From positions 103,516 through 167,515 of the IMG/VR virus record IMGVR_UViG_3300032213_002832: a DNA stretch of 64,000 bases; one strand, given 5' to 3'. A model generated the notes under the pieces. That model saw nothing but the letters and a program-made list of their open reading frames with translations. It was not told the DNA's origin and did no database searches. Below, piece by piece: positions 27,691 to 47,203 of this stretch. The position numbers were made by a program, and so were the translations under genes. Positions within the stretch are counted from its first letter, which is position 1. The number at the start of each line of letters is the position of its first letter. This DNA comes from a virus.

Positions 27691-27691
27691 A

Positions 27692-29353: not shown

Positions 29354-29361
29354 ACATTCTC

Positions 29362-32251: not shown

Positions 32252-32263
32252 AGTAGATAGTGG

Positions 32264-32566: not shown

Positions 32567-32590
32567 TTAATACTCCTTAAATAAAAAGTA

Positions 32591-32605
32591 GGGACCGAAG
32601 TCCCC
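32591..32605 (-). terminator. UUCG-tetraloop terminator
   Basis: GGGAC-TTCG-GTCCC then TACTTTTT on minus strand, right after the 32618 gene. Confidence 0.8.
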
Positions 32606-32617
32606 ACATACTATAGA

Positions 32618-33097
32618 TTACTTAACCAAGTGGCGTAGTGCTTCAGGTAGAGCGTCAAGGTTGATTGTCTTGACTTTCTTAGCTACTTTGGCTGAATTCA
32701 ACTCAGCAGTTCTAGAGAAGATTGCTGCGTCAATTTCAGTGATCGCATCAGCGTCAGAGAGAGTTGAGCGTAGAGCTTTAAGTGCTTTTAGCTGATCATC
32801 ACCAGCTCCACTTCGGCTTCCTGGGTTTTTGATCTCAGATTTAACTCCACCATTTAGTCTTTTGTCTTTGCGTAAGTGGTTGTTTACCATGCCAACTACA
32901 TAACCTTTAACTTTAGCATCTGTGTCGTACTTGGCTTTGGCTGATGCTGTGAAGTCAACTTTGCCAGAGAGAATACCAGATGTTACAATCTGGATTACAC
33001 TATTTCTCTCTTCTTTTGTCAACTCAACAGCTGAATCAAAGCTGTCTTGTCCCAAAGCACCACATACTGCGTGAAATACTGCGTCGTTCTGCTGCAT
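32618..33097 (-). CDS. 'NHLRKDKRLNGG' family protein
   Basis: Start moved to MQQNDAVF (AGGAG RBS); close paralog of 37640 and 39745. Confidence 0.8.
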   Translation of the reverse strand: MQQNDAVFHAVCGALGQDSFDSAVELTKEERNSVIQIVTSGILSGKVDFTASAKAKYDTDAKVKGYVVGMVNNHLRKDKRLNGGVKSEIKNPGSRSGAGDDQLKALKALRSTLSDADAITEIDAAIFSRTAELNSAKVAKKVKTINLDALPEALRHLVK

Positions 33098-33228
33098 AAA
33101 TACTCCTAAAATGTTGATGTTATATACTAAAACTCGTATACAACTCTCGTTTCGGTTGATCACAACCTATTTGTCATCAACTTACAAGTTAACATCGATT
33201 CGGTTTAAAACCTTGTTAGTCGGCTGGT

Positions 33229-33268
33229 GCGTAGCAGTGTCAATGTAAAATGGGGACCGAAGTCCCCA
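33229..33268 (-). repeat. Terminator + 16-nt box cassette
   Basis: GCGTAGCAGTGTCAAT + TGGGGACCGAAGTCCCCA. Confidence 0.85.
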
Positions 33269-33471
33269 CAGTTGTATATTACTCTTCGTCTACGAAATCC
33301 CACCAGTCATTACAATAAAAGTGTCTTATATCTTTCTCATCAAATACACCTTTAGCTATTAAATCTTTAAGTTCTTCAAGAGTGTAATCATCATAGTTGA
33401 TCATAATTGCTCCTTTATTATCATGACTAGTTGGAATATCAGACCAAATACTAGGAGTAAGTCGTTGTCAG

Positions 33472-33774
33472 TCATGATTGTTTCTTTGCTTTAACTTTTT
33501 GCTTTAAATTATATTGCTCAATTTCACGCTGAACTTTTTCACCTAAAGCTCGTATCTCTATAACCCAATCTTCTTTTTCATCATCTTCTTCAAGAAGAAG
33601 ATTATCTATATCATCATTTAAATTTTCAATTAGATCGTCTTCAGTATAAGCATCTATACCTTTAAAACCATCATAAACTATATCTTTAATTTTCATACTT
33701 TCTGCTTCGTCAAATAAGCGCTCTAACAATCTCTCACGAAGTTCATCACGTGTTTTCTTTGATAGTTTACCCAT
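33472..33774 (-). CDS. Acidic helical protein, paralog of 33998
   Basis: R.EL.ERL...IVY.G..G....T pattern shared. Confidence 0.6.
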   Translation of the reverse strand: MGKLSKKTRDELRERLLERLFDEAESMKIKDIVYDGFKGIDAYTEDDLIENLNDDIDNLLLEEDDEKEDWVIEIRALGEKVQREIEQYNLKQKVKAKKQS

Positions 33775-33997
33775 ATTATTTCTCCTTAGTTTTAGCCTTA
33801 GCTTCTCGCTTTAAATCATTTATCAATATCTGTAAACCTTCTTCATCATCTACGAATTGTTCAATTAAGTCATCAATTAGGTTATATCTAGAAGCATAGC
33901 CAACATATAATTCAAGCAAATCTCTTCGTTCTAATGCTTCCAATAGTTTATATAACTCCATATCTTTATCCATATAACCTCCAAGTGATTTATATAG

Positions 33998-34243
33998 TTA
34001 AATCGATTCGGTTGGGATTAATAGCTTATGGCTTTCTACTTCTACTTGTACTCTGATTAATAACTCATCATCTTCATCAGCATAAAATGTCAACTCATCA
34101 ACCATTTGCTGGTCAGTCATTTTATTTAGTCCCACCATACCTTCATAAACTATCTCTTCTTTACCATAACCATCAAACAGAACTTCCAATCTATCTTCAG
34201 CTAATCTCTCTTTTAACTCTTCTCTTAGTAATTCGTTTAGCAT
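33998..34243 (-). CDS. Acidic helical protein, paralog of 33472
   Basis: REELKERL...EIVYEGMVGLNKMTD. Confidence 0.6.
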   Translation of the reverse strand: MLNELLREELKERLAEDRLEVLFDGYGKEEIVYEGMVGLNKMTDQQMVDELTFYADEDDELLIRVQVEVESHKLLIPTESI

Positions 34244-34901
34244 AATTACCTCATTTTTTGATTAAGTTTACGAGACCAGTTAAGTGTCGCAGCATAAGCA
34301 TAACTTCGATTAGTAAATCCCTTTGGAAGTATTGTATTAACTTTTCCATTTTCCATATCAGCATATACAAGCCACCAGTCAAACTTGTTCTTTACTATAC
34401 ACTCTTGAATAGTCATATAACCTCCATTATTGTATAAGCTTAACTCGATTCGGTTTTATTCACCTATGTAATAATGAAAATCCCTACCACTTTTCAGTAG
34501 TAGGGAGTAAAAGGGGAAACAACTGGAGGTGTTACTTATTGGATATTACAAAACCTATTAATACTAATACACCTATACTTAACACTATTGATATGAAAGC
34601 CATACCACTGAATACATTATCCATCTGATTGATTACCATTTCCATCTTATGCCTCCTTCAACAAGCCGTTAAGCCTGAAGTCGTATGTAAGGGATTGGTC
34701 AATTGCTATAAGTATATCACCTCGCGTAAACACTTCACCACATGGATCTAGTTTACCTATTGCAATAGCATTCTCAATAATATCAGCAACTAAGCTTATT
34801 TGTCTATTAGAGAGCAAGACTTGCTTACCCTTTGGAGTAGGATTTGTAACATATTGTATAGCTTCGTAAATACCTTCAACTATAAACATAAACCCTCCTT
34901 T

Positions 34902-35138
34902 TTAGTACTCGTCGTCTTCATCTTCTTCGTCTTCATCTTCATATTCATCTTCGTCTGGGTCAAATATGCTATCTAATGCCTCTTCCATATAGTATGGATC
35001 ATTCATGTAATCAGCTGCTTCTTCTTCACTTTCATCATAAGTAGGATCATAGCCGAACATTTCATCTGGGTACTTATCTGATTCATAATCAATGTCTGTT
35101 AGTAAGTCAATCTCAACACCACCAAAATTTGCTTTCAT
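34902..35138 (-). CDS. Extremely acidic small protein (DNA-mimic candidate)
   Basis: Nearly half of residues are D/E, with interspersed Tyr; AAGGAG RBS and own promoter motif. Confidence 0.55.
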   Translation of the reverse strand: MKANFGGVEIDLLTDIDYESDKYPDEMFGYDPTYDESEEEAADYMNDPYYMEEALDSIFDPDEDEYEDEDEEDEDDEY

Positions 35139-35191
35139 AAATACTCCTTATTAATGAGTTGTTTAACGAACATGTTATTCTCGTATCGGTT

Positions 35192-35566
35192 TTAAACTCT
35201 ATCCTTCTTCTTAAAGATCTTCATATAAGTGGCCTCTTTTCTCTTAATAGCCTTTTCCATAGCAACTACTCTAGCTAATAGTGCGTTATACTTATCGTCC
35301 ACTACTTCTTGCTTTTCAGCCACTATTGGGCAATTTATCTTTGCCGCATGAGTGATATAGTACTGATCTCTCACTATTCCATCATATATCCACTTAAAAG
35401 GTGAAGTAGAATAAAAAGTCATATTATGACCATCATTCACTTTAATTACCTCATTTTCATAGTAGGCTGTAAAAACATATACATTAGAGGATCCGAATTT
35501 CACTACATATATTAAGAAATTCCCATCAACTAATTCCCACTCTTCTATAGGTATCCAGTCAATCAT
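35192..35566 (-). CDS. DUF551-like small phage protein
   Basis: WIPIEE N-terminus and ITHAA (cf. VTHW). Confidence 0.4.
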   Translation of the reverse strand: MIDWIPIEEWELVDGNFLIYVVKFGSSNVYVFTAYYENEVIKVNDGHNMTFYSTSPFKWIYDGIVRDQYYITHAAKINCPIVAEKQEVVDDKYNALLARVVAMEKAIKRKEATYMKIFKKKDRV

Positions 35567-35912
35567 ACTTCACTCCTCCACACCATGTAAGATACCAATT
35601 AAACTCAATATACCGTATATCACCATCATAATACGTACCCTTTTTATGGTGTATTCTTATACCCTTAAACTCTTCAACCTTACATAATATATCTACTATA
35701 TCTTCACCCTTACTACTGCTGTGTATCTCATGTGTATAGTTATGCTCACCTCTTTTAGCTGCTTTTACCATACCTTCAATAATCTCATCTTTTACAGCTA
35801 AAACATCCTTCTCTGCTAAAGCTACTGATTCCCTTTTCTTAAGTTCCTTAGCAACATCAGTATATAAAACAAGCCTAGAATACAAACTATACTTATTTCT
35901 AAACCATTTCAT
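35559..35912 (-). CDS. Hypothetical protein
   Basis: Start moved to MKWFRN after GAGGGAG. Confidence 0.55.
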   Translation of the reverse strand: MKWFRNKYSLYSRLVLYTDVAKELKKRESVALAEKDVLAVKDEIIEGMVKAAKRGEHNYTHEIHSSSKGEDIVDILCKVEEFKGIRIHHKKGTYYDGDIRYIEFNWYLTWCGGVKYD

Positions 35913-35981
35913 ATATACACTCCCTCTTTTATAAAATCTCAGTGCCAATAGTACCTTCAAATATCTCACCTCGCTCCGGAA

Positions 35982-36188
35982 TCATTTAAAGTCCTCAGTA
36001 TAAATTGGTTCATTTGGGAGCATATTGAATAACTCTCTTGTTACCGGAATTCCATGCCAACTCCTACGAGCAATCTCAATTTTAGCATATCTAATCTCTT
36101 CTGAAACATCAGCTAAATTTTCTTCTAGCTCACGCTTATATTCATCCCAAGTTATCTCAGACTTCGAATACTTCATATTAGTCCTCAC
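35982..36188 (-). CDS. Small protein, paralog of 36672
   Basis: ELEE.LA.V....R.AKIE....W.GI...EL.N.LP shared. Confidence 0.6.
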   Translation of the reverse strand: MRTNMKYSKSEITWDEYKRELEENLADVSEEIRYAKIEIARRSWHGIPVTRELFNMLPNEPIYTEDFK

Positions 36189-36657
36189 TCAATTTAATAT
36201 AAGCATTATTGGCTATAATAGCACCTTGAACACTATAGTAAACATCTTCTATATGAGTGATATCCCACTTATGTTCTGAGTAACGATGAGCGCTCACTAT
36301 ATTTTCAATTCTTTCTATAGCATCTAATACTTCATGTTTACAATATAAGTAATGATAAAATCTATCTGTATTATCAGCATCATAACCTGATTCTATCCCA
36401 TCATACCCTATATACTCAAACATCACCTCTGTTAAGTACATACTTTCATTATCATTACAGGTTTTATGAAACATATCAGTTGTAATACTACCTTCCAACC
36501 AACGATTAACTAATCCCCTTACATTAGAAATTACTTTACGATGATCTATTACCTCATTAGAGATTTTATCTAAAAAAGACAAGGCTAAAACAACAGTTTC
36601 TTTATGAGATAACTCTCTAATATTTACACCAGCAATCATGTATACCTCTTTACTCAT
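36178..36657 (-). CDS. Imm5-like family paralog 8, divergent
   Basis: ELSHKETVVLALSF...VNRWLEGSIT. Confidence 0.5.
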   Translation of the reverse strand: MSKEVYMIAGVNIRELSHKETVVLALSFLDKISNEVIDHRKVISNVRGLVNRWLEGSITTDMFHKTCNDNESMYLTEVMFEYIGYDGIESGYDADNTDRFYHYLYCKHEVLDAIERIENIVSAHRYSEHKWDITHIEDVYYSVQGAIIANNAYIKLSED

Positions 36658-36671
36658 ATAGACTCTCCTTT

Positions 36672-36896
36672 TTATAGAATCTCTTTACCAACAGAATCTT
36701 CAAATATCTCACCCACTTTAGGACCAATAGGAAGTTTGTTTAATAGTTCTTTAGAAGAGAGTATTCCAAACCAACGGTTATATACTACCTCAATCTTTGC
36801 ATCTCTAAGATCTTTGGGTACATTAGCCAAGCTTTCTTCTAGCTCTATTTTACGTCTATTCCAACGTTGCTCTAATGTCTTTACTAAATATTCCAT
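36672..36896 (-). CDS. Small protein, paralog of 35982
   Basis: Start moved to MEYLVK; shared motif. Confidence 0.6.
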   Translation of the reverse strand: MEYLVKTLEQRWNRRKIELEESLANVPKDLRDAKIEVVYNRWFGILSSKELLNKLPIGPKVGEIFEDSVGKEIL

Positions 36897-36993
36897 TAAT
36901 AATCCCCTTACTAAACTACCACTAAACATACATGAATACCCTATACCTAGACAATACTACATATATACAAATACCCTACTAACAGATTTACTC

Positions 36994-37200
36994 GAATCGG
37001 TATAGAGATACATACCAGTACCACACTGAGGAGAGTGTGAGGAGTAATGTGAATATTGGTGTAACTAGCAGATATTACAGAGGCGGAAAAGTGTGAAGAG
37101 TAGGGTGAGTTGGCGGAGTCACACTAAGTCAGCTTGACTTACGACTACTCTTCACAACCGACTCACACATCTCCATACCGATTCCTCTGTTTCTCTACCC
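36994..37200. other. Non-coding region with multiple inverted repeats (structured RNA or protein-binding array)
   Basis: GAATCGGTAT/ATACCGATTC, ACAGAGG/CCTCTGT, TGTGAAGAGTAG/CTACTCTTCACA, TAAGTCA/TGACTTA pairings. Confidence 0.5.
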
Positions 37201-37231
37201 CTAAACTGAATTGTTTAGAACCTAAAACTGA

Positions 37232-37519
37232 TTATATTCCGTACTCATCGTCATGTTCTATATAGTCTGTCTCTTGATTAAGTTGTAGTTCATCCATCTC
37301 TTTTTGAAAGGATTCATCTTCATATTCTCCTATTACCCCTATACAATCTTGGATAAATGCCATCTCTATACCCATAAGTGTAGGATTATTACAGTCTGGA
37401 CAAGAGTAATTCTTGGCGTCTGGTTCTACTCCGCCTTCTTTTGTTATGCTGTTACAGTGGGAGCAATAGCCATTATTGTGATTACAGTGAATATAATACT
37501 CATACTCTGAAAGTCTCAT
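37232..37519 (-). CDS. Zinc-ribbon phage protein with acidic tail
   Basis: GYCSHC...VEPDA..Y.CPDC. Confidence 0.65.
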   Translation of the reverse strand: MRLSEYEYYIHCNHNNGYCSHCNSITKEGGVEPDAKNYSCPDCNNPTLMGIEMAFIQDCIGVIGEYEDESFQKEMDELQLNQETDYIEHDDEYGI

Positions 37520-37591
37520 ATATACTCTCCTTTGTTGTATAAGTGTAGATCGATTCGGTTTGAGTGTGTATGTAGGTGTAAGTGGCTGTAG

Positions 37592-37632
37592 GCGTAGCAG
37601 TGTCAGTATAAAAGCGGAGCCGAAGCTCCGCT
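37592..37632 (-). repeat. Terminator + 16-nt box cassette
   Basis: GCGTAGCAGTGTCAGT + AGCGGAGCCGAAGCTCCGCT. Confidence 0.85.
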
Positions 37633-37639
37633 CGTTTAG

Positions 37640-38104
37640 CTACTTAACTAGATATCTTAGGCTTTCAGGTAGAGCGTCTATGTTTATAGTTGCTTTAGGT
37701 TTAGCTTGCTGTAGTTCAGCTAGTCTTTCAGCTATTGCTTCATCAACTTGTGCTAATTGCTCTGGATCAGTGATACCATCTCGTAGTGTTTTCAGTGCTT
37801 TAAGTTGCTCATCTTTAGGTCTAGAGGTTTTAGGTATGTCTTGTATACCACCATTTAATCTCTTATCTCTTCTTAAGTGATTACTAACCATTCCAACAAC
37901 ATACTCTTTTACTAGCTTACTCGTATTGTATTTGGCTTTCGCTTCAGTAGAGAAGTCAACTTTGTTAGCTAATATGCCTTCAGTCACTATATTCACTACA
38001 TTATTCCTCTCTTCTTTAGAGAGTTCAACTGCTGAGTCAAAGCTTGTTTTGTCTAATACTGAGCAAACTGCTTGAAAAACTGCATTGATTTGAGATGTTG
38101 TCAT
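37640..38104 (-). CDS. 'NHLRKDKRLNGG' family protein
   Basis: YVVGMVSNHLRRDKRLNGG...INIDALPESLRYLVK. Confidence 0.8.
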   Translation of the reverse strand: MTTSQINAVFQAVCSVLDKTSFDSAVELSKEERNNVVNIVTEGILANKVDFSTEAKAKYNTSKLVKEYVVGMVSNHLRRDKRLNGGIQDIPKTSRPKDEQLKALKTLRDGITDPEQLAQVDEAIAERLAELQQAKPKATINIDALPESLRYLVK

Positions 38105-38268
38105 AAATACTCCTTTGTTGTTAATTATATAGTTGACTCGAATCGGTTAACGCATTGATATACCTATGAAAAAGCCAATACTTAAACCCATCACAAACAT
38201 AGTAAAGATCATATACTCTCCTTTGTTGTTGTTATACAGCATACTCGATTCGGTTAAGCTCTGTGTAG

Positions 38269-38310
38269 GCGTAGCAGTGTCAGTAAAAAAGCGGGCCGAA
38301 GCCCCGCTTT
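38269..38310 (-). repeat. Terminator + 16-nt box cassette
   Basis: GCGTAGCAGTGTCAGT + AAAGCGGGCCGAAGCCCCGCTTT. Confidence 0.8.
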
Positions 38311-38318
38311 GTTATTGG

Positions 38319-38564
38319 TTAGGTATTGGTGTCTGTTATTGTGAGGGTTATGTTGTTATTTTCAAATCCAAGTGTTAATGAGTATGGACTCTCGTCTAAC
38401 CAAGCAGAACCAGGACCGAAGTTGTCTAGCTGGTGCTCGGTCTTCTTAGTTATCTTACAAAACTTTGTTATCTTATCCTCATTTCCTTTAGTAAACTGGG
38501 CAAACAAGTCATCCACATCAGAAGAGTAATTATCATAGCCAATAACCAAAGTTAATGTTCTCAT
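38319..38564 (-). CDS. Hypothetical early protein
   Basis: Own promoter motif (38600) and AAGGAG RBS. Confidence 0.65.
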   Translation of the reverse strand: MRTLTLVIGYDNYSSDVDDLFAQFTKGNEDKITKFCKITKKTEHQLDNFGPGSAWLDESPYSLTLGFENNNITLTITDTNT

Positions 38565-38656
38565 GTAAACTCCTTTGTTATTAATTATATAAGTTTAACT
38601 CGATTCGGTTTAGAAAAGAGGGGTAAACATCCATATTCACCCCACTTTATATCAAC

Positions 38657-38983
38657 TTACTTCTTTCTATATACTTCCAACCCATAATATAATCCATTAC
38701 CACTTCCATCCATATCCACACCCATATTCACATATCCTAACTTATTCATTTCACTTTCCAATCTATCAAAAAATCCATTCCATAACCAACCTTGAAACCT
38801 ATCTTTCTCATCACTACTCATATCATCATCCATCCAATCATAATGAATAACCACATCACTATCACACAACACTATATCACTATATTCAAAACTACCTCTC
38901 ACATCATCATGATTACTCACTTCAACACTTCCAAACTTATCCCATGAATTCAAATTAACTAACAACTCATTAACTTTATTCAT
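38657..38983 (-). CDS. Acidic early protein encoded by an almost cytosine-free mRNA
   Basis: Only 4 G on the plus strand in 327 nt (38794, 38845, 38911, 38946); no Ala, Pro or Thr; GAGG RBS, promoter motif 39037. Confidence 0.8.
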   Translation of the reverse strand: MNKVNELLVNLNSWDKFGSVEVSNHDDVRGSFEYSDIVLCDSDVVIHYDWMDDDMSSDEKDRFQGWLWNGFFDRLESEMNKLGYVNMGVDMDGSGNGLYYGLEVYRKK

Positions 38984-39059
38984 GAAAACCTCTTTAATTA
39001 ATTAATAACTTAATTGTTATTAATTATATAATATAGTCGGATCGGTTAAGTGGGCTAGA

Positions 39060-39100
39060 GCGTAGCAGTGTCAGTGATAAGCGGGACCGAAGTCCCGCTT
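39060..39100 (-). repeat. Terminator + 16-nt box cassette
   Basis: 41 nt identical to 39695-39735. Confidence 0.88.
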
Positions 39101-39106
39101 AGTTAG

Positions 39107-39310
39107 TTAGTCATATTTTCTAGGGTGTAAAGTTCTAAGTATATACTCCATTAAGTCTGGCAATACAGTCTCACCAAACTCTTCACTACTAGTAACAAGT
39201 TCATCTAGTTGACAACACTTTTCTTTTTCTTCTTCAGTACACTGATCATATAGCTTAAGATTAATATAACCGTCATTTGTAATCACTACTAAGTTACTTA
39301 ATATACTCAT
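39107..39310 (-). CDS. Hypothetical early protein
   Basis: Promoter motif 39342, AAGGAG RBS, UUCG terminator. Confidence 0.65.
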   Translation of the reverse strand: MSILSNLVVITNDGYINLKLYDQCTEEEKEKCCQLDELVTSSEEFGETVLPDLMEYILRTLHPRKYD

Positions 39311-39341
39311 ATATACTCCTTTGTTATTATATAAGTTTAAC

Positions 39342-39352
39342 TCGATTCGGTT
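39342..39352 (-). promoter_or_regulatory. AACYGANNCGA promoter-like motif (representative of about 26 copies)
   Basis: All copies are in the minus orientation, usually 15-35 nt upstream of an RBS; full list in findings. Confidence 0.75.
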
Positions 39353-39641
39353 AAGTATACATGGTTGCTATTTCTTCTTTCGAGTAGATTCTCACTGAAT
39401 AAGATTGTCCTAGTGGTATATCAAACTTAGCAAGATAATAAGAACTCATACCCTTAAAGCCATCTTCATCTGTAATTGGTATACGGAATGGTTTACCAAG
39501 ATCTGTAACAGGGATAATTATATTGAGCAGACTAGGTGTAGTTATATTGAATCCAGTAATAGTGCCATTCTGTATCTCTGTGACTTCTTGATCAGTTAAG
39601 CTGATAGTATTACTATAGTTTGTCTTCTTATCTCTGTACAT
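39351..39641 (-). CDS. Hypothetical early protein
   Basis: Promoter motif 39670, GGAGG RBS. Confidence 0.65.
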   Translation of the reverse strand: MYRDKKTNYSNTISLTDQEVTEIQNGTITGFNITTPSLLNIIIPVTDLGKPFRIPITDEDGFKGMSSYYLAKFDIPLGQSYSVRIYSKEEIATMYT

Positions 39642-39694
39642 AAAACCTCCATAGTTATATAAGTTTAATTCGAATCGGTTTACTCCTCACCCCA

Positions 39695-39735
39695 GCGTAG
39701 CAGTGTCAGTGATAAGCGGGACCGAAGTCCCGCTT
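39695..39735 (-). repeat. Terminator + 16-nt box cassette
   Basis: GCGTAGCAGTGTCAGTGATAAGCGGGACCGAAGTCCCGCTT. Confidence 0.88.
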
Positions 39736-39744
39736 AGTTGCTTA

Positions 39745-40227
39745 TTACTTAACCAAGTATCGTAGCGATTCAGGCAGAGCATCTATGTTGATCGTTGCTT
39801 TCGGCTTGCGTGTTGCTTGTATCTCAAGTGTGCGGTTAGCAATCGCTGCTTCAATCTCATGCCACTCTTCAGTGCCGTTGTCGAACGTACTCTGTAACAA
39901 CTTCAGTGCTTTAAGCTGCTCATCACCAGATCCAGCACGACTTCCAGGGTTTTTAATCACACGTCCAACACCACCGTTCATTCGCTTATCATTTCGTAGT
40001 TGATGACTCACCATACCAACTACATAACCTTTCACCTTCGCTTCAGTATCGTACTTCACCTTCGCATCATCACTAAATCCAACCTTACCAGCTAATATCC
40101 CTTCAGTGACCAAACCAATAACCGTTGCTCGTTGCTCATCACTCACTTCAACCGCACTATCAAACCCATCACACTTCAACACTGCACATACTGCTGCGAA
40201 TACTGCGTCATTTTGCTTCATAGTCAT
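39745..40227 (-). CDS. 'NHLRKDKRLNGG' family protein
   Basis: QNDAVFAAVC...YVVGMVSHQLRNDKRMNGG...KNPGSR. Confidence 0.8.
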   Translation of the reverse strand: MTMKQNDAVFAAVCAVLKCDGFDSAVEVSDEQRATVIGLVTEGILAGKVGFSDDAKVKYDTEAKVKGYVVGMVSHQLRNDKRMNGGVGRVIKNPGSRAGSGDEQLKALKLLQSTFDNGTEEWHEIEAAIANRTLEIQATRKPKATINIDALPESLRYLVK

Positions 40228-40257
40228 AAATACTCCTTGTTATATGTTATATTCGAC

Positions 40258-40392
40258 TCAGTTGAACTCATATCCCAATCGGCTTGCTTCAGTAACACAA
40301 TCCAACCTAACACTTGACATCATCACCAACACACCATCAATAAACAAACCATAACACTCATTCGACTCGGAATAATACACACCATCAGTCAT
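40258..40392 (-). CDS. Small early protein (MTDGVYY...)
   Basis: Start moved to 40392 after GGAG; promoter motif 40426. Confidence 0.55.
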   Translation of the reverse strand: MTDGVYYSESNECYGLFIDGVLVMMSSVRLDCVTEASRLGYEFN

Positions 40393-40539
40393 ACATACTC
40401 CAATGTTATTTGTTATATGGTTGACTCGACTCAGTTTCAACACCACGAACAACAACCGCGAAGACAATCAGTACACATAGGAAGGTCATACATAAGCTCC
40501 TTTCTGTTAGTTGTATAAGATAGACTCGGATCAGTTAAC

Positions 40540-40960
40540 AGGATTCAGAGAGGGTGCGCAGTGGTACACCCGCTAGCTTGAGCAGCAGGTACTAGTACCT
40601 CGAGTCGGTTGCCCTCCCCTGCCCGGTCTCTCTCTACATATCACTTTTTCATTTCTAGGGCCCGGCCCCACCCTACCCACTGGCTTGAGGGAGAATCTAG
40701 GGTCCCTTGGCTAGCTGGTACCACAAAATCACATTTATATAAATAACTTCACACTACTCCTCACAAACTCACAGCAGCCACACGCACCCATAATTTACAT
40801 ACACACCATATTTCCATATATGCTCCATATAAACAGCCCACATTTCCATATATCACACTACTCCTCATATCCATACAACCACACCCAATATCACAACAAG
40901 GTTTCGTATAATCTCATCACGCACCGCACCTTTTATTCATAAATGAATAAAACAATGTGC
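40540..40960. other. Strand-switch intergenic region (candidate origin or genome end)
   Basis: Divergent gene blocks; GC-rich 40610-40720; G-poor C/A tract with CACACTACTCCTCA x2 and ATTTCCATATA x2; palindrome 40931-40952. Confidence 0.5.
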
Positions 40961-40979: not shown

Positions 40980-41153
40980 ATGAGCATAGGTTCTTTTTAT
41001 TATGATAATAGTCTATATCTCTTCTATAACAGAAGAGATGATAGTTGGCGTATTAGCCAACGGAAACACCCTTCAAGTAGCGAAAGAGCAATAGAAGAGT
41101 CATCGCGTAGGTTACAAATGCGGGTTGTACTAATTAGGCTGGGAGTGATATAA
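40980..41153 (+). CDS. LLxKLGV microprotein 1 (57 aa)
   Basis: Manual: MSIGSFYYDN...RLQMRVVLIRLGVI. Confidence 0.8.
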   Translation: MSIGSFYYDNSLYLFYNRRDDSWRISQRKHPSSSERAIEESSRRLQMRVVLIRLGVI

Positions 41154-41154
41154 C

Positions 41155-41322
41155 ATGCGTAGGTTTTATGATGGCTATTTAGTATTAACATACTTTGAGA
41201 AAGTGAACGAATGCTCTATTACTCAGTATCAGACATTTGCCGGTCTGCCATTACAAAGTCTTTTTGAGTCAAAGTGTAGATTACAAATGGTATCGATACT
41301 AGTTAAGCTGGGTGTTGTATGA
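41155..41322 (+). CDS. LLxKLGV microprotein 2 (55 aa)
   Basis: Manual: MRRFYDGY...RLQMVSILVKLGVV. Confidence 0.8.
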   Translation: MRRFYDGYLVLTYFEKVNECSITQYQTFAGLPLQSLFESKCRLQMVSILVKLGVV

Positions 41323-41516
41323 GTGAAGTTTATATCATTGGTAATGATATGGAGTTTTCTTATAATACAGAATGTAGGGAGTATGCGCTTTTTACCAATG
41401 GTTCATATATTTTAGGATCTGCTCCAATCGACCTAATGGTTCCAATCGACCAGGATATTGAGTTTTATTTTAAAGTGAACATGGTTATATTGTTAAATAG
41501 ACTTGAGGTTATATGA
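41319..41516 (+). CDS. LLxKLGV microprotein 3
   Basis: Ends MVILLNRLEVI. Confidence 0.8.
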   Translation: MSEVYIIGNDMEFSYNTECREYALFTNGSYILGSAPIDLMVPIDQDIEFYFKVNMVILLNRLEVI

Positions 41517-41698
41517 AGTACATATATACATGTGGTGATGTAAGGCTAATATATGATAATCAGGCAAATTATCATGTGGATGGTAGGCATTGTATTATTT
41601 ACAATAGATATAAGGTACCCATGTCTATAGAGGAAGCGTTAGGAGCTGTACATAAGTTGGAAGTAGTACGGATTCTACTTAAACTAGGAGTACTATGA
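41513..41698 (+). CDS. LLxKLGV microprotein 4
   Basis: Ends VRILLKLGVL. Confidence 0.8.
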   Translation: MKYIYTCGDVRLIYDNQANYHVDGRHCIIYNRYKVPMSIEEALGAVHKLEVVRILLKLGVL

Positions 41699-41910
41699 CT
41701 ACGTTTATGAGATGGGGAGATGGTGGCATGGTACTACATTATGATGTAGCAAATACTACTGGGCACGTATTTAAATCTGGAGAATGGAGTAGCATTTACT
41801 TCGTACCTCATCAGGGGTGGAGAGGTAGAGATGATAAATCATTAGAGGAATCGCGTCACAGGTTACAAATGAGGCTTGTGCTACTTAAACTCGGAGTACT
41901 TACAGTATGA
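41695..41910 (+). CDS. LLxKLGV microprotein 5
   Basis: Ends RLQMRLVLLKLGVLTV. Confidence 0.8.
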   Translation: MTTFMRWGDGGMVLHYDVANTTGHVFKSGEWSSIYFVPHQGWRGRDDKSLEESRHRLQMRLVLLKLGVLTV

Positions 41911-42083
41911 AGAAATACAAAGATGGGCGTTATTTTATACACTATGAAGGTGATAAAATTCATGTTTTTCACATCACTTATTCAACAGACCCTAAGAATT
42001 ACAAGGATTCGCCGGCTCAGAATCAGTCGCGCCTTAGGATGGAGATGGTGAGAATTCTGCTTACACTCGGAGTAGCTACATGA
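41907..42083 (+). CDS. LLxKLGV microprotein 6 (58 aa)
   Basis: Manual: MKKYKDGRYF...MVRILLTLGVAT. Confidence 0.8.
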   Translation: MKKYKDGRYFIHYEGDKIHVFHITYSTDPKNYKDSPAQNQSRLRMEMVRILLTLGVAT

Positions 42084-42283
42084 GCTATATACATATTGGT
42101 GGCAGTGGTGGAAGAGCATTTTCTTATGATATGAAAACTGGATCTTACTCTATGAGTCAACCTACTTCGCCCATATATACTATGGGCCGTTATGATGTAG
42201 TAGATGTAGTACCAGAACATGACGATGATTTTCATTTTAAAGTGGACATTGTTTTATTATTAGCTAAATTTGGAGTGGTATGA
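42080..42283 (+). CDS. LLxKLGV microprotein 7
   Basis: Ends IVLLLAKFGVV. Confidence 0.8.
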   Translation: MSYIHIGGSGGRAFSYDMKTGSYSMSQPTSPIYTMGRYDVVDVVPEHDDDFHFKVDIVLLLAKFGVV

Positions 42284-42489
42284 GAATAATTAGAACATAT
42301 ACTGATGGGAACTTCGTACTACATCATGACAACTTAGATGATAGTTGTAATATTTATCAGGTTTGTAATACAGTTAGTTTTGGTAATATTTATATCCCTC
42401 CGCCGAAGGAAGGAGATAAAGATTCGCTTCTTAGACTAAAAGTGAGGCAAATGGCAATAAAGCTACTCCCCAAATTAGGTGTTATATGA
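42280..42489 (+). CDS. LLxKLGV microprotein 8
   Basis: Ends IKLLPKLGVI. Confidence 0.8.
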   Translation: MRIIRTYTDGNFVLHHDNLDDSCNIYQVCNTVSFGNIYIPPPKEGDKDSLLRLKVRQMAIKLLPKLGVI

Positions 42490-42602
42490 AAGCAATCAAA
42501 ACAGAATCGTTAGAAGAAGCTTTTAAGAGTGTCACTTTCAATATCGTACATTTAAAAACATTTAGTATGATTCAATTACTTTCTAAACTAGGTGTGCGAT
42601 GA
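42486..42602 (+). CDS. LLxKLGV microprotein 9 (38 aa)
   Basis: Manual: MKAIKTE...MIQLLSKLGVR. Confidence 0.75.
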   Translation: MKAIKTESLEEAFKSVTFNIVHLKTFSMIQLLSKLGVR

Positions 42603-42784
42603 TAAGGTTTGCGGATGGCGATATGAGAGTGGATTATTATGTAGATTCAGGTAATACGTTTTACCATATACAAATACCACAGCATATGTTTGATATAAAC
42701 TACACCGTCACCCCAAGCTTGTTTGATTCAAAACATAGGTTACAAATGCGAGTGATATTATTCAAGCTTGGAGTATGGGAGTAG
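42599..42784 (+). CDS. LLxKLGV microprotein 10
   Basis: Ends RLQMRVILFKLGVWE. Confidence 0.8.
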   Translation: MIRFADGDMRVDYYVDSGNTFYHIQIPQHMFDINYTVTPSLFDSKHRLQMRVILFKLGVWE

Positions 42785-42787
42785 CAG

Positions 42788-42991
42788 ATGGATAAGCGAA
42801 GTGTAGTGTATATAGATGGCGATTACATGATGTCTTATAATCGTATGAATTACGCGTGGTGTGGATATGACGAGAAATACTCATATTATGATATCAAATA
42901 TAGACGTGGCTTTCGTACAGGTAAAGAAGATAATAGTGGTCTTTATAGGCTTCTGATGAGACGATTACTAATGAAGTTGGAAGTAGTATAA
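42788..42991 (+). CDS. LLxKLGV microprotein 11
   Basis: Ends MRRLLMKLEVV. Confidence 0.8.
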   Translation: MDKRSVVYIDGDYMMSYNRMNYAWCGYDEKYSYYDIKYRRGFRTGKEDNSGLYRLLMRRLLMKLEVV

Positions 42992-43185
42992 TGGTTGAAA
43001 TGTTTGTAACAATTAGTGATGGGAACTGGATACTACAGATGAATACCACTAGAGGTACTGGGCGTATACAATCTGCTTTTTACCCATTTGTAAACAAACC
43101 ACAATATTTACAAAATAGTCATGAAGTGGATTCATTCTATAGACTCTATATACGACTAATATTAATGAAGTTGGGAGTAGCATGA
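42991..43185 (+). CDS. LLxKLGV microprotein 12
   Basis: Ends IRLILMKLGVA. Confidence 0.8.
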   Translation: MVEMFVTISDGNWILQMNTTRGTGRIQSAFYPFVNKPQYLQNSHEVDSFYRLYIRLILMKLGVA

Positions 43186-43295
43186 CGTACCTTGATCGTA
43201 TAGAGTTTTCTCATGATGAAATTCAGAAGGCCATTAACCTACTTAATATAATAAACAAATTAACGCAGCTACTTAAAAAGTTGGATGTTATATGA
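43182..43295 (+). CDS. LLxKLGV microprotein 13 (37 aa)
   Basis: Manual: MTYLDRIEF...LTQLLKKLDVI. Confidence 0.75.
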   Translation: MTYLDRIEFSHDEIQKAINLLNIINKLTQLLKKLDVI

Positions 43296-43462
43296 TATTA
43301 AAGCATAAACATGTTGGTAATTGGATAGTGCGTTACAGCGACACCTTCAGTACTTCTAACAGCGATATAAGTATACATCAGATTGATAGCAATCCAAGTT
43401 ATAAACATTCATTTAGGGGATTAAGACTAATCGGAGTCTTGATGAAGTTGGGTGTTATATGA
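43292..43462 (+). CDS. LLxKLGV microprotein 14 (56 aa)
   Basis: Manual: MILKHKHVGNW...IGVLMKLGVI. Confidence 0.8.
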   Translation: MILKHKHVGNWIVRYSDTFSTSNSDISIHQIDSNPSYKHSFRGLRLIGVLMKLGVI

Positions 43463-43617
43463 AGATGGAGCATATTTGGTATCACACGCCAAGTGGCGTT
43501 AGTGCGAATTATAAGGGTGAGTGGAAGCATTTTGGTGCTAACATCTCGTGGAATCGTGACAATATGAAGGATATAGCTGAATTGTGGTTGTTGTTAAAAA
43601 GGTTGGAGGTGGTATGA
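43459..43617 (+). CDS. LLxKLGV microprotein 15 (52 aa)
   Basis: Manual: MKMEHIWY...LWLLLKRLEVV. Confidence 0.8.
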   Translation: MKMEHIWYHTPSGVSANYKGEWKHFGANISWNRDNMKDIAELWLLLKRLEVV

Positions 43618-43778
43618 AAACTATTGGTGGGTTTAGGCAAGATCGACATGGCATTATGATAATTGATATATATGATCAAGATATTATGCGCTTGGCTGCG
43701 ATCGGGGGTTTTACAGTTCGGCATAGAAGATATCAGGCACATATGTTGATACTACTTCAAAAGGTTGGAGTGATATGA
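43614..43778 (+). CDS. LLxKLGV microprotein 16
   Basis: Start moved to MKTIGG; ends MLILLQKVGVI. Confidence 0.8.
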   Translation: MKTIGGFRQDRHGIMIIDIYDQDIMRLAAIGGFTVRHRRYQAHMLILLQKVGVI

Positions 43779-43933
43779 GTGGTAATATGTTGGCATTTGG
43801 TAATAGCTATATTGCGTATACAGGTGATTTTAGAGTCTATAGTTATCAAAATGGAGATGTTTTTACTTACAACTTCTTATTAATAGTGATGTTGCTAGAT
43901 AAGTTAGGGATGAGTTTGGATAAGTGTCGATAA
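43775..43933 (+). CDS. LLxKLGV microprotein 17 (52 aa)
   Basis: Manual: MSGNMLAF...IVMLLDKLGMSLDKCR. Confidence 0.75.
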   Translation: MSGNMLAFGNSYIAYTGDFRVYSYQNGDVFTYNFLLIVMLLDKLGMSLDKCR

Positions 43934-44008
43934 ATATTGGTTTTTAGTTTTTCCGACGACCAGAGGCTACGAGTATAATGATTTTATATAAATAAATATA
44001 AGGTTGAG

Positions 44009-44146
44009 ATGAATATTGGTTGTATTAGAAATATAGTGTTATTACTTATAAAGCTCAATGTGCTTCGGGATGTATCACCGGATACAGCAAATGCTTTAAT
44101 AATCGATTACATTAAGATTAAATACAATCAGTATAGTAAAGGGTAG
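44009..44146 (+). CDS. LLxKLGV microprotein 18 (motif N-proximal)
   Basis: Manual: MNIGCIRNIVLLLIKLNVLRD... Confidence 0.7.
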   Translation: MNIGCIRNIVLLLIKLNVLRDVSPDTANALIIDYIKIKYNQYSKG

Positions 44147-44154
44147 AAAAAGAT

Positions 44155-44289
44155 ATGATGGATTATAAAGGGGGATGGTATCAACACCGAGAACTTTCGA
44201 ATGTCATTTACATCTTATGTAAACTTGGTGCTATAGATCAGAATATTCTTACGCTACTTACTGGTAGAAAACTTGAATATAAGAAGTAA
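44155..44289 (+). CDS. LLxKLGV microprotein 19
   Basis: Manual: ...VIYILCKLGAID... Confidence 0.72.
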   Translation: MMDYKGGWYQHRELSNVIYILCKLGAIDQNILTLLTGRKLEYKK

Positions 44290-44300
44290 ATTGGAGATAT

Positions 44301-44432
44301 ATGCGTAAATATTCATTAGCTCGTGTCAGGTATACGCTAAATACCAAGCACAAGATGCTAAAACTCCTATCTAAGTTAGGTGTTATTCATCCGCTTGTAT
44401 ACGCTAAAGCATATAATAAGGTAAGTTTATAA
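44301..44432 (+). CDS. LLxKLGV microprotein 20
   Basis: Manual: ...MLKLLSKLGVIHP... Confidence 0.75.
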   Translation: MRKYSLARVRYTLNTKHKMLKLLSKLGVIHPLVYAKAYNKVSL

Positions 44433-44591
44433 ATGAGATACTCAGCAGCACATAGCGGCGCCCTCATTAATATCGAAGTATTAATTATACTCCTGTATAA
44501 GCTCGATATATTAGATGAGATACAGTATGGCAAAGCTGTACTCCACCTATATGGAAGGGGATTAACTTATTACAATGAATCTTACCTATAA
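44433..44591 (+). CDS. LLxKLGV microprotein 21
   Basis: Manual: ...LIILLYKLDILD... Confidence 0.72.
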   Translation: MRYSAAHSGALINIEVLIILLYKLDILDEIQYGKAVLHLYGRGLTYYNESYL

Positions 44592-44712
44592 GCAAAGATT
44601 ACAACTCATGCGAGTTGTAAGGCTCCTTAGTCGTTTGGGAGTCGTTAGATCTGGCCTATATCCTAATATTGATTTTATAAAGATCAACCTAGTGATGGAA
44701 TCAAATGACTAA
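44575..44712 (+). CDS. LLxKLGV microprotein 22
   Basis: Manual: ...RLQLMRVVRLLSRLGVVR... Confidence 0.75.
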   Translation: MNLTYKQRLQLMRVVRLLSRLGVVRSGLYPNIDFIKINLVMESND

Positions 44713-44872
44713 GAAAACTATACAACAACAAATAGATTCTTATCATAAGATACAAGATACCTATTTTAAACAAGTACTTTATCGCGAGCGATTAAACAAG
44801 ATTATTAGTTTACTGATACGTATGGGTGCTCTTGATAATGTCCCATCGAAAGTGTTGTGGCAATTAAGATGA
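44705..44872 (+). CDS. LLxKLGV microprotein 23
   Basis: Manual: ...IISLLIRMGALD... Confidence 0.72.
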   Translation: MTKKTIQQQIDSYHKIQDTYFKQVLYRERLNKIISLLIRMGALDNVPSKVLWQLR

Positions 44873-44889
44873 GGGGAGGTAAAATATAA

Positions 44890-45033
44890 GTGGGTAATTA
44901 TTTTGGTGACGACTGTATGCGTATGCTACATATGCTTCATGTGTTAGAGGTTATTGATAGTAATCAGCAAGTCATCGCAAGACGTAGAGCACTTTATGAG
45001 ACAGATACTTTGTATAAAGCATGGACTACATAA
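44890..45033 (+). CDS. LLxKLGV microprotein 24 (GTG start)
   Basis: Manual: ...MLHMLHVLEVID...; GGAGG RBS. Confidence 0.65.
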   Translation: MGNYFGDDCMRMLHMLHVLEVIDSNQQVIARRRALYETDTLYKAWTT

Positions 45034-45044
45034 GGTAATTTTAA

Positions 45045-45152
45045 ATGGCGCGATCACCAATAGAAGATATTAAAAGAGCAATGTGTTATTATGATGAGCT
45101 TTATTATTTGAGAAAGATAAAGCTACTTATGGTTAAGCTAGGGGTAATATGA
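45045..45152 (+). CDS. LLxKLGV microprotein 25 (35 aa)
   Basis: Manual: MARSPIED...IKLLMVKLGVI. Confidence 0.75.
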   Translation: MARSPIEDIKRAMCYYDELYYLRKIKLLMVKLGVI

Positions 45153-45277
45153 AAGGTGGGTTAGTAAAAATCATTTATATATTACGTAGACTCGATGTTA
45201 TTTGCGCATCTACTGAGTTTAATGCTTGGCAACATATTAAATACTATACTAATTTTGTGGAAACCAATAATACATGA
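45149..45277 (+). CDS. LLxKLGV microprotein 26
   Basis: Manual: MKGGLVKIIYILRRLDVIC... Confidence 0.72.
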   Translation: MKGGLVKIIYILRRLDVICASTEFNAWQHIKYYTNFVETNNT

Positions 45278-45516
45278 ATAGTGCTCCAATCTACACAAAT
45301 GGCCATTTTAATCAAATCAATGATCTCCTCTACAAGTTAGAGAGACTAGGTGTTATCGATTACAGTTTATATCTAAGTAGCAGCACTAGATTATGGATGA
45401 AGCACGCTGCCACCTATCCTAATAATAGCTCTACCTATACGAGCATCTCTTCCACTTCCTATACAGGTATCTACACTATTGCTACAACTGATACGACATT
45501 TTTAGGTAACAAATGA
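45274..45516 (+). CDS. LLxKLGV microprotein 27
   Basis: LLYKLERLGVID, Ser/Thr-rich tail. Confidence 0.72.
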   Translation: MNSAPIYTNGHFNQINDLLYKLERLGVIDYSLYLSSSTRLWMKHAATYPNNSSTYTSISSTSYTGIYTIATTDTTFLGNK

Positions 45517-45662
45517 AATACAATATTACGATAGAGAACCTTATAGTATATGATATCAGTGATATTTTAGTACTTCTTAATAGGTTGGAAGTTATCAATG
45601 ACCATATCTATAATGTAGCAAAAAGCAATACTATATATTTCGGACATGTGGAGGTATCATGA
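45513..45662 (+). CDS. LLxKLGV microprotein 28
   Basis: Manual: ...ILVLLNRLEVIND... Confidence 0.75.
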   Translation: MKYNITIENLIVYDISDILVLLNRLEVINDHIYNVAKSNTIYFGHVEVS

Positions 45663-45799
45663 CAATTCACGATCACTGGCGTAGACAGTGTATGATTGGG
45701 TTGCTGCGCAAATTAAGTGTACACGATAAGTTAATGTCACGTGCTGTCACGTCTAGTCGTCCCGTTAAGAACCGCGTAAATGACAAACAACCTAGATAG
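45659..45799 (+). CDS. LLxKLGV microprotein 29
   Basis: Manual: ...MIGLLRKLSVHD... Confidence 0.7.
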   Translation: MTIHDHWRRQCMIGLLRKLSVHDKLMSRAVTSSRPVKNRVNDKQPR

Positions 45800-45923
45800 C
45801 ATGGAAGACATGATTAGTTTATTATGTAAACTAGGAGTCATAGATGATAAGGCATTTGAACGCATCATGCCTTGGGGATTGTATGGTATGTATACACAAG
45901 CTATATGGGGCGGTAATAAGTAA
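45780..45923 (+). CDS. LLxKLGV microprotein 30
   Basis: Manual: ...MISLLCKLGVIDD... Confidence 0.75.
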   Translation: MTNNLDSMEDMISLLCKLGVIDDKAFERIMPWGLYGMYTQAIWGGNK

Positions 45924-46066
45924 TGGGCTTAACTAATGTATCACCAGCGATAGCAAAAAATATAAGAGATATTGTTATTCTATTATATAGATTAGATGTT
46001 TATGATTATACAGTATCACTTACCGCACAAATCAAACTATATCATATTGGGAGATGGACAGAATGA
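45923..46066 (+). CDS. LLxKLGV microprotein 31
   Basis: Manual: ...IVILLYRLDVYD... Confidence 0.72.
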   Translation: MGLTNVSPAIAKNIRDIVILLYRLDVYDYTVSLTAQIKLYHIGRWTE

Positions 46067-46230
46067 CTTATGGTATGATACTTTTACTTAATAAGCTGGA
46101 TATTATAGATGGGAATAATTATAACAATATTATATTCGAAGCGGTGTCGTCGGCGCCTATACAGCAATACTTAACTGCGCAACAATTAAAGATATGGACA
46201 AAAAGTCTAAAGATAATACCTAAAAAGTAA
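46063..46230 (+). CDS. LLxKLGV microprotein 32
   Basis: Manual: MTYGMILLLNKLDIID... Confidence 0.72.
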   Translation: MTYGMILLLNKLDIIDGNNYNNIIFEAVSSAPIQQYLTAQQLKIWTKSLKIIPKK

Positions 46231-46232
46231 TT

Positions 46233-46367
46233 TTACTTTTCATCTAGTACAATTTTCAATATAGTTATAAAAGTATCATAAGCGCTCTTCTGATGTAAGA
46301 CGCCTAGCCTACGCAATAGAGTAACCATAGAGGCTACACCACTTAGTCTTTGTCGATTATTCAGCAT
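46233..46367 (-). CDS. LLxKLGV microprotein 33
   Basis: Manual: MLNNRQRLSGVASMVTLLRRLGVLH... Confidence 0.75.
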   Translation of the reverse strand: MLNNRQRLSGVASMVTLLRRLGVLHQKSAYDTFITILKIVLDEK

Positions 46368-46516
46368 TATTTCTCTTTTTTATATGATACACCCAATGCC
46401 ACACTGATTATTTCCACAAGTGCTGAATTATGTGTTAGCTTATCTACCACATTTAGTTTATATAATAGATCAACTAATGAAGTAACACCTGATAAATCTC
46501 TATACCCACCAGACAT
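46367..46516 (-). CDS. LLxKLGV microprotein 34
   Basis: Manual: MSGGYRDLSGVTSLVDLLYKLNVVD... Confidence 0.75.
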   Translation of the reverse strand: MSGGYRDLSGVTSLVDLLYKLNVVDKLTHNSALVEIISVALGVSYKKEK

Positions 46517-46518
46517 TA

Positions 46519-46722
46519 TTACTCCGGATATTTAAAAATACGATTAACTAATTCATGAACTACATACTCAACATTAGTAGTGGAACCCTCTACTACATTC
46601 ATTTTTTCCAGTAAATATATCATTTGCCTTAATAGCTTTTGACGTTGGCCTTGTAATGAGTTATATCTATTTCTTCGGAACAGTTCCATATGTTCCATAA
46701 ACTGTCTGGTGGCACTTTTCAT
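46519..46722 (-). CDS. LLxKLGV microprotein 35
   Basis: MIYLLEKMNVVE. Confidence 0.72.
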   Translation of the reverse strand: MKSATRQFMEHMELFRRNRYNSLQGQRQKLLRQMIYLLEKMNVVEGSTTNVEYVVHELVNRIFKYPE

Positions 46723-46925
46723 TTATTACTCATTCTTTGAAATAAGCTAAGTTTCCATCTCTTGACGCCTTCTAGAACATCGCTCCTATATAGGTGTATA
46801 TCCTTATTTTCGAATACGTCTAGTTTCTTAAGTATTCTACAAATATAGAGAACATCATTTGCTGTTCTTTTATTAGGGTCAGATGGTGGCTCATGATTAG
46901 TCAGTATATGAGATACTCCCCACAT
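46719..46925 (-). CDS. LLxKLGV microprotein 36
   Basis: ICRILKKLDVFE. Confidence 0.72.
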   Translation of the reverse strand: MWGVSHILTNHEPPSDPNKRTANDVLYICRILKKLDVFENKDIHLYRSDVLEGVKRWKLSLFQRMSNK

Positions 46926-46996: not shown

Positions 46997-47203
46997 TTAC
47001 GATTCATCGAGTAAGAGACTTATTCTAGCTAACTTATCAGAGGCCATCTCATACCTCTCTTTGCGGGATGGTAGTGTATGTGCCTGTAGAAACTCTGGTA
47101 GACACTTTCTTTTAAATGGGCACCGATTACAAAGCTCACTAGTTAAACAATCACCATTTTTTGCTACTATATTGTTTAAAACTTTTATCTGCTCATCATC
47201 CAA
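46997..47203 (-). CDS. Small Cys-rich protein
   Basis: C....C..CPF...C metal-binding pattern. Confidence 0.55.
   Translation of the reverse strand: MDDEQIKVLNNIVAKNGDCLTSELCNRCPFKRKCLPEFLQAHTLPSRKERYEMASDKLARISLLLDES

Follow-up and report, generated by a model that had tools for sequence, protein, structure and literature searches.

Introduction

The internal proteins of phage T4 (IPI, IPII and IPIII) are small, basic and strain-variable, and join divergent mature parts to a common short peptide (PMC9026906). That peptide, the capsid-targeting sequence (CTS), is a propeptide of 10 N-terminal residues that the head protease cleaves off, and IP-like proteins have been described as basic (PMC9026906); IPI and IPIII counteract host defence (10.1101/2022.04.14.488369). 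Here we analyse an array of the same general description, 36 microprotein genes at positions 40980-46925 of a 64,000-nucleotide window. The window is the whole stretch of DNA studied and forms the final 64 kb of the complete 167,515-bp virus record IMGVR_UViG_3300032213_002832, whose assembly ends overlap (circular). Every array product carries one type of amphipathic helix, at the C-terminus in genes that we call class 1 and in a few short genes, and internally in class 2. The T4 CTS stands at the N-terminus of the products of a few genes, whereas the array helix is internal or C-terminal and occurs in up to 36. The CTS also ends in the head-protease site of its phage, whereas the L-x-[KR]-L core of the array helix misfits the site L-x-K-[SAG] that we infer for this clade from enrichment in a hand-chosen set of head-region genes. 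Judged from sequence, the array is not a member of the T4 CTS class, from which it departs in two defining tests.

The host-takeover module of phage SPO1 likewise groups small genes whose targets probably lie in the host, and SPO1 Gp53 is a single 25-kDa adaptor-like protein for ClpC (PMC6873191). Gp53 offers a precedent for a phage protein that steers a host hub; no link between the array and a Clp ATPase was found. The virion gene beside the array and the tail sheath have distant SPO1-type relatives. The early genes of the SPO1 module lie under repeated strong promoters in the DNA injected first; around the array, repeated promoter-terminator cassettes sit to its left and on the other strand. 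We know of no motif common to the 26 SPO1 genes. SHOCT (PF09851) is an amphipathic helix pair with a turn, appended to unrelated domains (PMC3581485). It resembles class 2, but its conserved residues differ and class 1 has the first helix only; a search of the genome gave 0 SHOCT matches at E up to 10, and the Pfam scans of the members gave none. T4 tifA, a small counter-defence gene, undergoes segmental tandem amplification by recombination, with gain and loss (10.1101/2022.04.14.488369). Copies of tifA are identical and transient, whereas the array copies are old and diverged, fall into two architectures and are retained across the clade.

Results

An array of microprotein genes with one helix

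The array is tiled by 36 open reading frames (ORFs), 32 on the plus strand and four on the minus strand, which encode 35-80 aa (median 53) and make the region 97.8% coding. These counts exactly reproduce those of the initial annotation, and the coupling of genes that it described amounts to 18 four-base (ATGA) and three one-base (TAATG) overlaps. The first 17 genes have the helix at the C-terminus, and 18 of the other 19 have it internally. Within the window the motif begins at residue 11-62, and 17 of the 36 copies finish no more than three residues from the stop. Most products are basic (isoelectric point, pI, above 8 in 28 of 36; median 9.3).

Three GTATAAT -10 boxes suggest an arrangement in three operons, two of them converging. 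This heptamer ranks first among its 140 permutations for enrichment before genes, with 20 of 49 sites so placed against a median of 7%. The boxes and genes are listed below; L numbers denote loci, mostly of relatives, G numbers denote genomes, and the anchor is the adjacent virion gene at 47296.

40906-40912, plus: GTATAAT -10 box, putative operon 1 promoter; kept 5' of the array in L078, L042, L072, L002 and L075
40980-41153, plus: class-1 gene, 57 aa, C-terminal helix; relatives in L078, L164 and L168
41155-41322, plus: class-1 gene, 55 aa; L078 orthologue
41319-41516, plus: class-1 gene, 65 aa; L168 orthologue
41513-41698, plus: class-1 gene, 61 aa; L071 orthologue
41695-41910, plus: class-1 gene, 71 aa; modelled three-strand meander and C-terminal helix 47-66; orthologue P0002 in L071
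41907-42083, plus: class-1 gene, 58 aa
42080-42283, plus: class-1 gene, 67 aa; paralogue of the 41319 gene
42280-42489, plus: class-1 gene, 69 aa; three listed strain variants, all synonymous
42486-42602, plus: short C-terminal-helix gene, 38 aa
42599-42784, plus: class-1 gene, 61 aa
42788-42991, plus: class-1 gene, 67 aa
42991-43185, plus: class-1 gene, 64 aa
43182-43295, plus: short C-terminal-helix gene, 37 aa
43292-43462, plus: class-1 gene, 56 aa
43459-43617, plus: class-1 gene, 52 aa
43614-43778, plus: class-1 gene, 54 aa
43775-43933, plus: class-1 gene, 52 aa, final gene of operon 1
43973-43979, plus: GTATAAT -10 box, putative operon 2 promoter; inside the sole large gap (75 nt), at the class boundary
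44009-44146, plus: class-2 gene (internal helix), 45 aa
44155-44289, plus: class-2 gene, 44 aa
44301-44432, plus: class-2 gene, 43 aa
44433-44591, plus: class-2 gene, 52 aa; two similar genes lie either side of the protease insert in L164
44575-44712, plus: class-2 gene, 45 aa
44705-44872, plus: class-2 gene, 55 aa; possible chimera, C-terminal flank common with L164:7374, N-terminal flank not
44890-45033, plus: class-2 gene, 47 aa; GTG start, ATG alternative at 44917
45045-45152, plus: short C-terminal-helix gene, 35 aa
45149-45277, plus: class-2 gene, 42 aa
45274-45516, plus: class-2 gene, 80 aa, tail rich in Ser/Thr
45513-45662, plus: class-2 gene, 49 aa
45659-45799, plus: class-2 gene, 46 aa; region skipped in one related strain
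45780-45923, plus: class-2 gene, 47 aa
45923-46066, plus: class-2 gene, 47 aa
46054-46230, plus: class-2 gene, 58 aa; L168 relative on the opposite strand
46233-46367, minus: class-2 gene, 44 aa, operon 3
46367-46516, minus: class-2 gene, 49 aa; modelled helix 8-20, turn, helix 26-41
46519-46722, minus: class-2 gene, 67 aa
46719-46925, minus: class-2 gene, 68 aa
47251-47257, minus: GTATAAT -10 box, putative operon 3 promoter; divergent from the structural operon

The initial annotation placed the motif LLx[KR]L[GDEN]V in every product. All 36 do carry the helix, but only 14 match that strict form; a relaxed form fits 35, and in the remaining product Lys replaces the first Leu. As the region is tiled by the ORFs, this set was not selected for the motif. 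Chance is excluded as a source of the motif's frequency: the comparison with shuffled ORFs proposed at the outset gave means far below the observed counts, whether residues were shuffled (0.005 strict and 0.96 relaxed matches, maximum 6) or DNA was shuffled by a Markov model (0.007 and 2.8), and the remaining genome holds 0 strict and 2.8 relaxed matches per equal length. The helix profile is hydrophobic at positions -5, -2, -1, 1, 2, 5, 7 and 8, with Lys or Arg at 4 and Gly, Asp, Glu or Asn at 6, and Leu at positions 2 and 5 is hardly ever substituted in the window's 36 products.

Selection targets the protein, with codons varying freely. Where two motif copies have the same residue at a position, the codon is identical in 26% of pairs against 28% expected under free choice, and information reaches 2 bits at second codon positions against 0.1-0.75 at third positions. 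As first reported, the array holds no long DNA repeats; the longest families are of 46-69 nt at 60-74% identity and lie mostly over motif codons. For the motif, the ratio of nonsynonymous to synonymous substitution rates (dN/dS) is 0.09 when the closest relatives are compared, and larger sets give 0.25-0.29. The flanks reach 0.38-0.43 (confidence interval 0.24-0.55) in larger sets and 0.74, on 217 codons, in the closest pairs. With core genes at 0.03-0.10, the flanks evolve 4-10 times faster yet stay below 1, a pattern of relaxed purifying selection with no overall sign of positive selection.

Two architectures share the helix

The remainder of each protein was initially described as hypervariable. 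The flanks do diverge, but many of the first 17 genes are weakly paralogous, with a common weak N-terminal beta-hairpin signature, and class-1 N-termini look like those of diverged paralogues. The predicted class-1 model has three strands and a 20-residue helix (predicted local distance difference test, pLDDT, 77), and that of class 2 is a helix-turn-helix hairpin in which the motif lies at the end of the first helix (pLDDT 83). Because the two classes align only over the 15 columns of the helix (E=2e-5), the helix appears to be portable. The only common part of the microproteins is predicted to be an amphipathic helix of 12-15 residues with a terminal Gly/Asp/Glu/Asn cap.

The array recurs in relatives, turns over and varies by lineage

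Homologues of the anchor number 662, and about 15 loci were checked for arrays. Every locus with an anchor at least 65% identical and sufficient upstream DNA has a motif array in this place, of about 6-23 copies.

Array-bearing loci of relatives: L001, L002, L039, L042, L072, L074-L077, L164 and L168

Across 11 loci we count 134 distinct members, besides the arrays in L074-L077 and dispersed copies in G003; members from outside the window were collected by motif scan, which makes their profiles partly circular. At anchor identities of 52-56% the locus is empty and copies are dispersed in the non-structural arm, where G003 has 19 motif matches against 0 in reversed sequences. No motif was found in G004, whose genome is incomplete. 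Members of 35 aa or fewer make up 15 of the 134; sizes of 23-35 aa occur, some hardly more than the helix, and one 26-aa member is identical between G003 and L020.

Even at anchor identities of 91-95%, orthologues were called for only 13 of 36, 8 of 36 and 10 of 25 genes. The rearrangements seen are an inversion at the convergent junction, one deletion, and a protease gene inserted between two similar array genes; one array gene is a possible chimera with its junction at the motif. By these comparisons array content is turning over fast. The inserted gene, in L164 (6358-7071) and L168 (4286-4999), encodes a ClpP-like protease of 237 aa that seems to have a signal peptide; the gene is under purifying selection (dN/dS 0.05) and has no tblastn match to the genome's two ClpPs. 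Several relatives have an early-type box before the minus block, and the window's array has -10-only boxes.

The motif consensus is uniform within a genome and shifts between lineages. At anchor identities of at least 76% the dialect favours Met or Ile (position -2), Leu (position 1) and Val (position 7); at 65-70% (L074-L077) there is more Phe, Thr or Val, and Leu, respectively, at these positions.

Library, fold and literature searches

Pfam, PHROG and PADLOC scans of the array members gave no match of note. The class-1 profile had 14 matches among 1.84 billion proteins; inspected matches comprised proteins of the window itself, a close relative and two repetitive artefacts. A PDB sequence search returned chance matches only, and fold searches (PDB, BFVD, VIA-wide and Atlas) returned nothing significant, the best for our own model being TM no higher than 0.45 and Z no higher than 4.2. 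A low-confidence model of the Atlas reached TM 0.55/0.59 to a DUF4160 cluster. At the sequence level no match to DUF4160 or HicA was found: PF13711 and PF07927 had 0 matches at E up to 10, and the class-1 profile gave no alignment to two single DUF4160 sequences. A likeness to nuclear export signals was set aside as generic, since the pattern fits 34 of the 36 proteins and still fits 25 when they are reversed.

Because gene callers overlook many array genes, the family is nearly invisible in databases. The initial annotation knew of no described phage system of this kind; none emerged from the libraries or fold searches, and no description of this microprotein family was found in the literature, with subscription papers outside coverage. 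The array family is a real, undescribed, clade-wide microprotein family.

Genome setting and neighbouring features

Because the genome codes for a tail sheath, a major head protein, a head protease, GroEL, a sigma factor and two ClpP-like proteins, we identify the virus as a large myophage. It is an uncultured freshwater phage, and contigs of related strains from three freshwater studies span the whole array region; no RNA data set is listed for that region. The sheath's best cultured match is Myxococcus phage Mx1 (34% identity), with which the genome has 25 proteins in common at a median of 30% identity; the array motif was not found in Mx1.

The start of the array coincides with the genome's GC-skew minimum and is divergent from the arm of repeated promoter-terminator cassettes. 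Features near the array or related to it are as follows.

40568-40706, no strand: non-coding GC-rich element, conserved; just 5' of the array, at the cumulative GC-skew minimum
46997-47203, minus: Cys-rich gene, 68 aa, conserved; heads the minus-strand operon, lacks the array motif, and is also found in relatives without an array here
22876-23013, plus: probable lone 37th copy, 45 aa, outside the array; Gln at the variable position, called by eye and below the scan threshold

The element at 40568-40706 can be aligned across seven loci with a mean column identity of 65%; those loci show no convincing covariation, and there is no Rfam match. It is a candidate origin, terminus or packaging site. 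In L004-L012, upstream of the anchor, the open frame of the Cys-rich gene runs on without a break into a lysozyme-like gene.

In the cassette arm (window 32173-40537) a promoter-like box, AACCGAATCGAG followed by TATA, recurs with hairpin terminators, nearly all on the minus strand. A 649-bp piece between two 46-nt repeats (39075-39723) has about twofold depth in the probable source run and is a candidate collapsed tandem duplication or short terminal repeat. Four paralogues of about 160 aa (23676-24110, 32618-33163, 37640-38104 and 39745-40227, minus strand), most of them behind an early-type promoter, belong to a family that flanks the array, is multi-copy throughout the clade and has no Pfam or PHROG match. 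The match of an RpoD-like sigma factor (L082:8735-9421, genome 34734-35420) ends at model position 191 of 238, and region 4 is therefore cut short; such a shortened sigma factor would fit the -10-only promoters.

Two further tags were seen. The motif NGQW-x-L-x-K, mostly near N-termini, occurs in G003, G004 and G001, with two copies here (window 10064-10669, plus strand) and eight in G003; it ends in the inferred L-x-K-[SAG] site and is a candidate tag for capsid targeting. In the left arm (window 25361-31783, minus strand) at least nine genes code for a C-terminal helix that is acidic and amphipathic, of the type I-D-x-I-[LF]-E-K-I-V-L, seven of them in a paralogue family of about 150 aa with a weak Imm5-like match and two unrelated, of 79-80 aa. 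The hydrophobic register of this acidic helix agrees with that of the array helix, and similar endings occur in G003.

Discussion

A proposed single handle with many flanks

The pattern that we describe is best read, with a little less than even confidence, as a docking helix that is portable and recognised by one partner, probably of the host. The array is a birth-and-death family of phage microproteins, in which the helix would serve as a docking handle for one partner per lineage. We infer a single-partner handle because the Leu-x-[Lys/Arg]-Leu core is fixed over unrelated flanks and varies by lineage, and one reader per lineage because the genome-uniform consensus spans unalignable flanks. 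The partner would most likely be a host protein met in infection, since no large phage protein has the motif and the dialect shifts between lineages. As the long phage proteins contain no convincing copy, self-mimicry is unlikely. The short flanks may tune affinity or add a second contact, and the panel of flanks may cover variants of the partner or its clients. Renewal of this panel would come from tandem duplication and recombination, and the ATGA and TAATG overlaps would couple translation. We are doubtful of a further step in which the helices form an adaptor code, one hub binding the helix while different second surfaces redirect it to many clients, with a co-evolving dialect and a recombining library.

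The initial annotation had proposed a constant dock joined to variable effectors. The dock part stands, as a portable helix under protein-level selection that is found in two architectures and follows a lineage dialect. The effector part fares less well, given members hardly longer than the helix, paralogue-like class-1 N-termini and flanks without overall positive selection. Of the hubs that it named, none has positive evidence. The protease within relatives' arrays, with its apparent signal peptide and lack of a match to the genome's ClpPs, is best read as an unrelated insertion, and ClpP was set aside as the hub.

Several points tell against a single host partner. Gene co-occurrence across relatives singled out no reader. 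No orthologues are detectable across dialects, and dialects could come from separate expansions of different founders as well as from a concerted change with a partner. Orthologue calls were automatic and may include paralogues. The relatives that bear on host assignment are scattered for the reductase, mostly in Bacteroidota, and uninformative for the anchor and the inserted protease. The register of the motif is that of a generic helix C-cap, which occurs in many folds, and its mean hydrophobicity of 0.64, together with Phe in distant dialects, also fits membrane binding.

Alternative explanations

The helix might instead be a head-loading tag: members would enter the head and be injected as cargo against host defence, much as the CTS serves T4 internal proteins. 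The array directly adjoins the structural operon and shares its type of -10-only box, its products are largely basic, as IP-like proteins are (PMC9026906), its gene content is polymorphic between strains, and its L-x-K core resembles the inferred head-protease site. We nevertheless regard head loading as unlikely. In head-region proteins L-x-K-[SAG] is over-represented (4.1 against 1.3 per 1000 aa, p=5e-6), while L-x-R-[SAG] and L-x-K-L are scarce; the array motif, by contrast, is L-x-[KR]-L, with Arg in one third of copies. The array tag is internal or C-terminal, with no N-terminal propeptide, and the G003 copies are dispersed in the non-structural arm. The clade's separate NGQW-x-L-x-K motif, mostly near N-termini, suits the role better, and the capsid interior, another hub of the initial annotation, must compete with that tag. 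It is also rather improbable that the helix targets membranes, parking small proteins on the inner membrane with no protein partner. Its wide hydrophobic face, basic residue at the edge and Gly cap are features that we take to be like those of the MinD and Sar1 helices, and the array helices have a mean hydrophobicity of 0.64, a moment of 0.35 and a mean charge of +1.1, with Phe at -2 in distant dialects. But Leu is fixed at positions 2 and 5, Phe and Trp are nearly absent from the window's 36, net charge is zero or below in 35% of helices, and only 17% exceed the lipid-binding discriminant of 1.34. Transmembrane-like hydropathy is found in just two of the 36 proteins, and lipid binding needs no genome-wide dialects.

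A gene accordion, in which the helix alone would act as an inhibitor or decoy amplified for dosage in the manner of T4 tifA, with flanks as tolerated filler, also seems to us improbable. The members of 23-35 aa, including the 26-aa one identical in G003 and L020, argue for it, as do the flank dN/dS of 0.74 in the closest pairs and evident tandem duplication and loss, for which tifA is a precedent (10.1101/2022.04.14.488369). In larger sets, however, the flanks are under measurable purifying selection, gene-specific flanks are retained between phages near synonymous-site saturation, and class 1 retains a predicted folded meander. An explanation at the level of nucleic acid, with a ribosome-binding site or recombination joint translated incidentally, is largely refuted and very hard to sustain: conservation is three-base periodic with synonymous sites free, the motif dN/dS is well under 1, and half of the window copies are internal, away from start codons. 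The possible chimera with its junction at the motif would suit such an element. So would the GGAG or GAGG within the motif codons, which 17 of the 36 C-terminal copies have, shortly before the following start codon, compared with 12 of the 98 internal copies (p=7e-5). This Shine-Dalgarno overlap of C-terminal motif copies is a secondary use of the DNA.

Implications

A large share of big phage genomes is taken up by small unannotated genes. In this case an entire block of them comes down to a single testable helix of 12-15 residues, which can be synthesised as bait, with wild-type and cross-dialect helices as natural controls. Should a single partner emerge, it would account at once for as many as 36 genes per genome, in a phage group whose anchor homologues number several hundred. 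If the reading of a single docking handle is true, the array would represent a new class of natural peptides that bind a bacterial protein.

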